DNA of 64,000 nucleotides. Source: Escherichia coli. GTDB lineage: Bacteria; Pseudomonadota; Gammaproteobacteria; Enterobacterales; Enterobacteriaceae. This document shows positions 45,024 through 45,322 of the stretch, in pieces. The first letter of the stretch is position 1. Each line of letters starts with the position of its first letter. Position numbers and translations under genes: made by a program. The notes under the pieces were generated by a model, which saw only the letters and a program-made list of their open reading frames with translations, was not told where the DNA came from and ran no database searches. The stretch lies in NCBI RefSeq assembly GCF_045037415.1, contig NZ_CP173438.1; one strand, 5' to 3'.

Positions 45024-45322
45024 AATGGCTCACTCAAGCTTGCTCACGATTGATTCCAGTAACAAACCGTATTGTGTAATTATTTCTATAGCAGATCGCT
45101 ATATAGGCTTGTATACATCGAATAATTTGAAAATCAAAGAGATAGGTGGATTTTCACTCGAAAGTAGTATTACTTGTAAGTGAGGAGTAATTATTGTTCG
45201 GTATCAAAGGGAGACAAAAAAAGCGCCCGCAGGCGCTTTAACGTTTCTTGCCCCTCCTGATGATTTACTTATTTTTCAACGAATAAGCCAAAACAGGGGG
45301 AACAAATTAACACAAATTATAA

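Follow-up and report, generated by a model that had tools for sequence, protein, structure and literature searches.

The serS terminator stem-loop as the probable integration core of a P2-family prophage beside the dmsA promoter of Escherichia coli

Temperate phages whose integration site is the 3' end of a host gene or tRNA carry a copy of that end and thereby rebuild its function (reviewed by Campbell). The prophage described here lies in a 64,000-nucleotide stretch of Escherichia coli DNA, which is referred to as the window. It resembles these phages in that it carries the recombining host element, in the dyad symmetry of this element and in the hairpin that is kept at both junctions. In contrast to such phages, the target is the predicted terminator of a protein gene (serS) and not a tRNA. 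Moreover, the stem-loop alone is duplicated, without the U tract, and the two rebuilt terminators are therefore unequal.

The element was also compared with phage P2. Its integrase (Pfam Int_N, 1e-27; Phage_integrase, 1.5e-18) is 56% identical to P2 Int over 324 aa (E 9e-141), and in a tblastn search of a phage collection, three in-silico prophage cut-outs apart, no record among the best 40 listed exceeded ~56% identity. To the right of the gap between dmsA and int, a P2-type gene set was found, comprising a C-like repressor, cox, a replication endonuclease, portal, terminase, scaffold and capsid genes, and the arrangement att-int-C / cox agrees with that of P2. The rebuilt attP site is collinear with P2 attP from end to end: an ogr-side terminator, two arm repeats with a spacing of 11 bp, a block that is rich in A/T and IHF-like (AAATAAAATCCATTTATTTTCAAATGATTA in this element, AAATAAATCCTTTTATTTCATGTGATTA in P2) and the core are followed by a spacer of ~90-110 bp and then by another pair of repeats, which overlaps the int stop. 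Pairs of ATGGAC(A/G) with 11-bp spacing occur in both attP arms and are invariant across all lineages aligned; the spacer between arm repeats and core varies among lineages. On the int side, the repeats read ATGGACA (45330-45336 and 45341-45347), lie within the 3' end of int and are putative arm-type sites for Int. The differences from P2 concern the core sequence and the chromosomal target, the core here being a perfect hairpin with an 8-bp stem (the serS terminator), and the Cox-family protein, which has 173 aa and matches Pfam Phage_Cox over residues 58-129 only. In addition, the element here has hok/gef and a ParM module.

Neither the phage collection nor IMG/VR contained a free phage genome or circular contig with the rebuilt attP. 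Exact scans of IMG/VR for the rebuilt attP of two lineages gave no match, and a degenerate junction pattern returned attL forms and chance matches only. Therefore, attP was inferred from the two junctions. Three matches in the phage collection were considered as free phages and rejected, as they are in-silico prophage cut-outs containing dmsAB. The records ON470599.1 and PV468777.1, deposited as phage genomes, are prophage predictions that overshoot the att core and take in host dmsA and dmsB.

Very probably, the P2-family prophage of the window integrated via a core formed by the stem-loop of the serS terminator, leaving dmsA P1 unchanged and with little or no effect on dmsA. In the proposed model, the phage's own 20-bp copy of the stem-loop would recombine with the chromosomal copy by means of the tyrosine integrase, strand exchange would be confined to the apex of the hairpin, CCCGCAGG, and only DNA upstream of ~-80 relative to P1 (~-74 in diverged lineages) would be swapped for phage DNA. 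As the phage brings its own hairpin copy, each of the two junctions has one hairpin after integration. The junction is an ordinary one for a P2-family prophage, and the strain background is well known. The features on which this model is built are collected in Table 1.

Table 1. Features of the dmsA-int region, in window coordinates
Feature	Position	Strand	Basis or remark
dmsA coding sequence, 814 aa	42579..45023	-	ATG at 45023-45021; ORF list and RefSeq annotation of identical sequence
dmsA leader (5' UTR), estimated	45024..45159	-	FNR box centre 45200.5 minus 41.5
ModE-type palindrome CGCTATATAggcttgTATACATCG	45097..45120		in dmsA leader, host DNA; 1 mismatch in 18 specified positions (consensus scan)
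RF02084 (STnc130) match	45114..45248	+	cmscan 137.4 bits, gathering score 55; model positions 1-135
FNR box TTGATACCGAACAA of dmsA P1	45194..45207	-	host DNA, same as K-12
Host U7 tract (A7 on + strand)	45216..45222	-	3' of hairpin in serS/int/dmsA direction; K-12 identical
att core AAAGCGCCCGCAGGCGCTTT, 20-bp direct duplication	45220..45239		predicted stem-loop of the serS intrinsic terminator
Putative strand-exchange segment CCCGCAGG	45226..45233		hairpin loop and two closing pairs per side
Phage junction arm (int-proximal attP arm)	45240..45350		two ATGGACA direct repeats
int, P2-type tyrosine integrase, 330 aa	45323..46315	-	Pfam Int_N and Phage_integrase; RefSeq annotation
Immunity repressor, C-like, helix-turn-helix	46385..46726	-	upstream of int; Pfam HTH_3 and annotation
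cox-family gene	46831..47352	+	divergent from C and int; Pfam Phage_Cox and annotation

The gap between the int stop codon (45323-45325) and dmsA measures 299 bp (45024-45322). A 1001-bp query spanning this gap was run against complete E. coli genomes and matched in 5424 of 5426. Most of the matching genomes align only with query positions 1-540 (window 44700-45239), and a full-length match was obtained in 344. Unoccupied genomes match the window from dmsA as far as 45239; up to this position the DNA is that of the host, and the P2-family prophage begins at 45240. As positions 45240-45322 are phage DNA, the junction is a point inside the gap and not the whole of 45024-45322. A preliminary description of this DNA had placed the int stop ~300 bp from the dmsA start, had called the element P2-like and had located a prophage junction in the gap; the gap length, the gene set, Int and attP described above, and the host/phage boundary at 45239/45240 bear it out in each of these points. 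In the genome of strain CFSAN051542 (NZ_CP020835.1), the 1001-bp query matched over 85 bp only (window 45155-45239); this points to a rearrangement or deletion in which the 5' end of dmsA was lost.

The prophage extends past the end of the window, and no second copy of the core was found within the window. The far junction was therefore taken from strain 4/1-1, which is 100% identical to the window through the junction. The sequence AAAGCGCCCGCAGGCGCTTT is present in one copy in empty sites, as in attB of K-12, and in one copy at each prophage end, here the copy in the window (Table 1) and the one at the serS-proximal junction of strain 4/1-1. In K-12 attB, GGCGCTTT is followed by TTAGATTCAG and then, 22 nt on, by the serS stop. 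The far prophage end in strain 4/1-1 reads CTCTACTT-AAAGCGCCCGCAGGCGCTTT-TTAGATTCAG, again followed by serS. In this three-way comparison of attB with both junctions, the 20-bp core bounds an insert of 38,657 bp in strain 4/1-1. A comparison with unoccupied sites had been proposed in the preliminary description, and it has now defined both attB and the core.

In order to determine how often the site is occupied, a K-12 query of 301 bp with the core at its centre was used with 5425 complete E. coli genomes. The attB site was intact in 5075 and split in 350 (~6.5% occupied), and the split pieces overlapped by the core (20-21 bp). The int gene together with its arm was detected in 362 genomes, 354 of them at a coverage of at least 80%. 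Since the 350 split sites are matched by 354-362 genomes with this int family, other elements at the site are unlikely. The junction is not a chance arrangement, because an exact 20-bp repeat bounds a P2-type element of 38.7 kb, and the site itself is uninterrupted in 5075 of the 5425 genomes.

All five loci examined have int ~299 bp from dmsA, down to a nucleotide identity of 81%. The window lineage comprises strains 4/1-1 and EC958; UTI89 has the prophage at the same site (96% nucleotide identity), and more distant forms are found in Z1323 and 2013C-3033 (~83.5%) and in DG343-1 (81%). In CFT073 the site is empty. EC958 (ST131) is 100% identical to the window at 44767-45467 and 46267-50267. 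Prophage Phi1 of this strain has been described (Forde et al. 2014, PMC4134206; defined in Totsika et al. 2011), and its coordinates, with a tail region at ~956-961 kb, fit the window prophage. Judged by sequence identity and position, the window prophage is apparently Phi1 of EC958. The searchable literature contained no description of the att core of Phi1, of its crossover or of its relation to serS or dmsA, and no paper that connects a prophage att site with either gene; the att specificity seems to be undescribed there.

Beyond the right end of the window, a hok/gef gene adjoins the serS-side junction in strain 4/1-1. In this strain, the distal region of the prophage appears to have undergone rearrangement, with the block of sheath, tube and tape-measure genes in inverted orientation with respect to ogr and D, a truncated D gene and an internal stop in the annotation of gpM. 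The 4/1-1 prophage may be defective, and present-day excision may be absent.

Independent, diverged phages occupy the identical point and have hybrid cores. In the Z1323-type lineage, the dmsA-side junction reads ...AAAGCGCCCGCAGG-AGGTTT-aacgc and the serS-side junction ...ctaaaaCCA-CCCGCAGG-CGCTTTttag, from which a phage core of AAACCACCCGCAGGAGGTTT is deduced that has only CCCGCAGG in common with the host. In the DG343-1-type lineage, the dmsA-side junction differs in the right half (AGATTT) and the serS-side junction is host-like; here the deduced phage core is AAAGCGCCCGCAGGAGATTT, and only its left 14-15 bp are common to the host. Since the hybrid cores of the diverged lineages share only CCCGCAGG with the host, strand exchange probably takes place at the apex of the hairpin, within 45226-45233. 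By analogy with tyrosine recombinases, the two arms of the stem would be inverted core-type sites for Int.

The core forms a hairpin, AAAGCGCC-CGCA-GGCGCTTT, with a perfect stem of 8 bp. In K-12 this hairpin, with U7 behind it, begins 22 nt past the serS stop, and the empty site has a T/U run on both strands. A terminator scan of the region flagged the hairpin on both strands (8 terminator-like sites, 1.9 expected in shuffles), and the serS terminator folds with -16.5 kcal/mol (z -3.2). By its sequence, the hairpin is the intrinsic (rho-independent) terminator of serS, and its distance from dmsA is the native one. The attL hairpin with U7 likewise folds and is a predicted terminator. It should stop transcripts that leave the prophage via C and int, as for serS in empty sites, and would therefore shield dmsA P1, which lies 60 bp downstream. 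At attR, on the serS side, the hairpin is followed by UUUAAG (flank UUUAAGUAG). With only UUU at this position, termination of serS is probably less efficient and may partly rely on a bidirectional terminator carried by the phage. This phage terminator lies ~90 bp further in from the serS side and is preceded by an A run and followed by a T run (AAAAAACAAAGCCCACAGC...GCTGTGGGCTTTTTG). All terminator strengths given here are predictions from sequence and fold. The two hybrid hairpins of the Z1323 and DG343-1 lineages are weakened, and the copy beside dmsA is disrupted; the insulation argument is therefore limited to the window lineage. In the lysogen, the phage arm beside the core (GGAGGGGCAAGAAA, minus strand) can pair with the host sequence U7-GUCUCCC, and this pairing extends the terminator hairpin (45208-45262, minus strand) to ~-28.7 kcal/mol (z -3.5). 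A similar but weaker complementarity is seen in other lineages, and the pairing may be due to chance.

The dmsA promoter is a class II promoter with an FNR site centred at -41.5, according to published work. NarL protects the FNR and polymerase sites at dmsA, and the gene is under ModE control, as has also been published. Within 45024-45322, the box TTGATACCGAACAA has one mismatch to TTGAT-N4-ATCAA and is the sole match to TTGATNNNNATCAA with two mismatches or fewer in a consensus scan. A weaker FNR-like half site at 45124-45137 was dropped in favour of the box at 45194-45207 on the basis of the consensus scan and the ChIP coordinates. Using the published spacing, the P1 start would lie at ~45159 (+/- 1-2 nt) and the leader would have 136 nt; the -10 hexamer is TAATAC (45172-45167). 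Published ChIP peaks, in U00096.2 coordinates, are located at 939,992 and 940,035 for FNR and at 940,050 for sigma70 under anaerobic conditions. For comparison, NC_000913.3 coordinates were converted to U00096.2 with an offset of 777 bp. This places the centre of the FNR box at ~940,004.5, between both FNR peaks, and the P1 start at ~940,046; the predicted positions are consistent with the ChIP peaks. We take 777 bp to be the offset between the two K-12 genome versions, which agrees with the serS peak. The promoter coordinates are thus assigned from the consensus match, the -41.5 spacing and the positions of the ChIP peaks.

From the ATG to the core (45024-45219, 196 bp), the window differs from K-12 by three SNPs only, at 45095, 45148 and 45174. 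None of these is in the FNR box, and the SNP nearest to the ModE-type palindrome, 45095, is just beyond its edge. The consensus used to find this palindrome is what we take to be that of ModE. The three SNPs are strain polymorphisms and are independent of occupancy; unoccupied genomes exist that are 100% identical to the window across 44700-45239. At the sequence level, the class II FNR promoter dmsA P1 is unaltered by the insertion, and all 216 bp 5' of the ATG are host DNA. The core lies 12 bp upstream of the FNR box and spans ~-61 to -80 from the estimated P1 start. The preliminary description had placed the insertion in or next to the dmsA promoter. The element does adjoin the promoter, but it is not inside it. 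An intact promoter with the core well upstream had been named there as a finding that would speak against this placement: the promoter is indeed intact, but the core, at ~-61 to -80, does not lie well upstream.

Several other accounts of the locus were weighed against integration at the serS terminator. According to one, the 38.7-kb segment is ancestral and was lost by deletion from most E. coli, so that no insertion took place. Beyond the presence of the segment in several lineages nothing speaks for this account, which is already refuted and to which we attach practically no credence: the serS-dmsA gap is seamless in 5075 of 5425 genomes, diverged phage variants are found at the same point, and the segment has a complete P2-type gene set, a 20-bp direct repeat at its bounds and an integrase with arm sites. 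The hairpin has also been regarded as a possible int terminator or displaced host terminator, as in the preliminary description, which had correctly noted the stem-loop AGCGCC-cgca-GGCGCT with its T run on the minus strand (45220-45239, U7; terminator scan and fold agree). Its position 83 bp past the int stop, on the int strand and with a U7 tail, would suit a phage-encoded int terminator, or a relocated host terminator, unrelated to the recombination site, and a copy of the hairpin is indeed present in the phage. In every empty site, however, the same hairpin with its left flank is found 22 bp past the end of serS, the U7 tract belongs to the host, and the hairpin is exactly the segment that is duplicated at both junctions. 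The hybrid hairpins of the diverged lineages, moreover, point to recombination inside the hairpin. We regard this account as highly improbable and, given the comparison of attB with the two junctions, as already refuted: the hairpin appears to be the serS terminator in its native position and, at the same time, the att core itself. Transcription from the opposite strand offers a further explanation, namely that the relevant feature is the small RNA STnc130 (45114 to ~45245, plus strand), whose 3' U-tail would be changed from UUUUUAG to UUUAACG by integration. If so, termination or Hfq binding would be impaired and antisense read-through into int would result. The Rfam match (RF02084) is full-length, with 137 bits against a gathering score of 55, and the U run that follows the hairpin on the plus strand in attB is lost in the lysogen. 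The match is on the plus strand, antisense to the dmsA leader and promoter, and it ends in the same terminal hairpin as STnc130, i.e. the core hairpin; it differs in its 3' tail, as the last 9 model positions are phage DNA. STnc130 itself is a bioinformatic (class V) prediction in Salmonella, located between serS and dmsA and antisense to both, with 0 cDNA reads and a Northern result given as 'nd' (Sittka 2008 Table S3), and elsewhere it has been listed simply as a 'putative sRNA'. In addition, the Rfam model amounts in essence to the conserved dmsA promoter and serS terminator on the other strand, and sequence scans of the gap found no convincing promoter upstream of 45114. We read the RF02084 match as these two conserved elements seen from the opposite strand, with no evidence for an RNA, and a role of STnc130 at this junction is quite unlikely.

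The remaining alternative concerns dmsA directly. The prophage might change dms regulation from within the dmsA regulatory region, by loss of an upstream element, by read-through from int, by an Int/IHF complex or by AT-rich DNA near the FNR site. The proximity of the core to the FNR box, at -61 to -80, speaks for such an effect, as does the phage DNA beyond -80 with 60-70% A+T. The alpha C-terminal domain of RNA polymerase occupies the region upstream of class II promoter sites, and the core-type sites of Int would overlap this region. In the Z1323 and DG343-1 lineages, where the hairpin beside dmsA is broken, int transcripts could reach P1. On the other hand, every recognised promoter element is on the host side and unchanged, the hairpin and U7 are intact in the window lineage, and ~350 genomes of several lineages retain the arrangement. 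Expression data from lysogens also argue against it. HOCl induces dmsA 4.6-fold in EC958 and ~47-fold in UTI89, which are occupied, and 11-fold in CFT073, which is empty (Zhong et al. 2025, PMC12096835), so that the fold changes are not sorted by occupancy. EC958 respires DMSO: dmsA-dependent growth on glycerol/DMSO was reported for EC958 and CFT073 (Zhong et al. 2025, PMC12096835). As dmsA is induced in lysogens and EC958 grows with DMSO, an on/off effect is excluded. Altered dms regulation is, on balance, unlikely, and the net effect on dmsA in the window lineage is most likely little or none. A quantitative effect on dmsA, via Int/IHF at -61 to -80 or via AT-rich phage DNA, is possible, the comparison between strains being uncontrolled. 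We are similarly doubtful that the re-sorted terminator halves couple expression at the prophage ends to serS and that Int/IHF tune activation by FNR, especially where the hybrid hairpin is broken. If this were true, outgoing transcripts (from C-int towards dmsA and from ogr/hok towards serS) would meet a hairpin with the host U tract, and incoming transcripts (from serS, and plus-strand RNA from the dmsA leader) a hairpin without U tract.

Integration at the serS terminator stem-loop provides, at base level, attB, the core and a putative crossover for a P2-family integrase lineage that ~6.5% of complete E. coli genomes carry, among them those of ST131 (EC958) and UTI89. With the core mapped, prophage boundaries can be called correctly; public 'phage' records wrongly include dmsAB. 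The mapped junction enables the design of PCR assays for occupancy and excision, and the site beside serS is a possible integration target. Since lysogens retain the native dmsA promoter intact, strain-to-strain differences in dmsA expression should not be ascribed to the prophage unless a cured control is included. The intactness of the promoter also bears on dmsA biology in uropathogens.

Within the prophage, a cargo block (54305-58294) separates the replication gene (51406-54228) from the portal gene (58309-59355). It encodes ParM (54305-55264) and a Plasmid_stab_B protein (55269-55583), followed by a 280-aa protein (55667-56509, minus strand) with a weak PADLOC match to Csx27 (1e-5), which lies beside a DUF4760 protein (56549-57046, minus strand). 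The block further contains an ORF of 174 aa (57770-58294). The block is located in what we take to be the variable region of P2-like phages, often with defence genes. Two direct repeats of 42 nt (54162-54203 and 54235-54276), 83% identical and each with the hairpin AACGGGAnTTnnGAATCCCGT, flank the stop of the replication endonuclease gene. At ~24700-28855, the window also contains part of a second P2-like prophage, with baseplate, tail fibre and invertase genes, which ends beside aroA and by its position is Phi2 of EC958.
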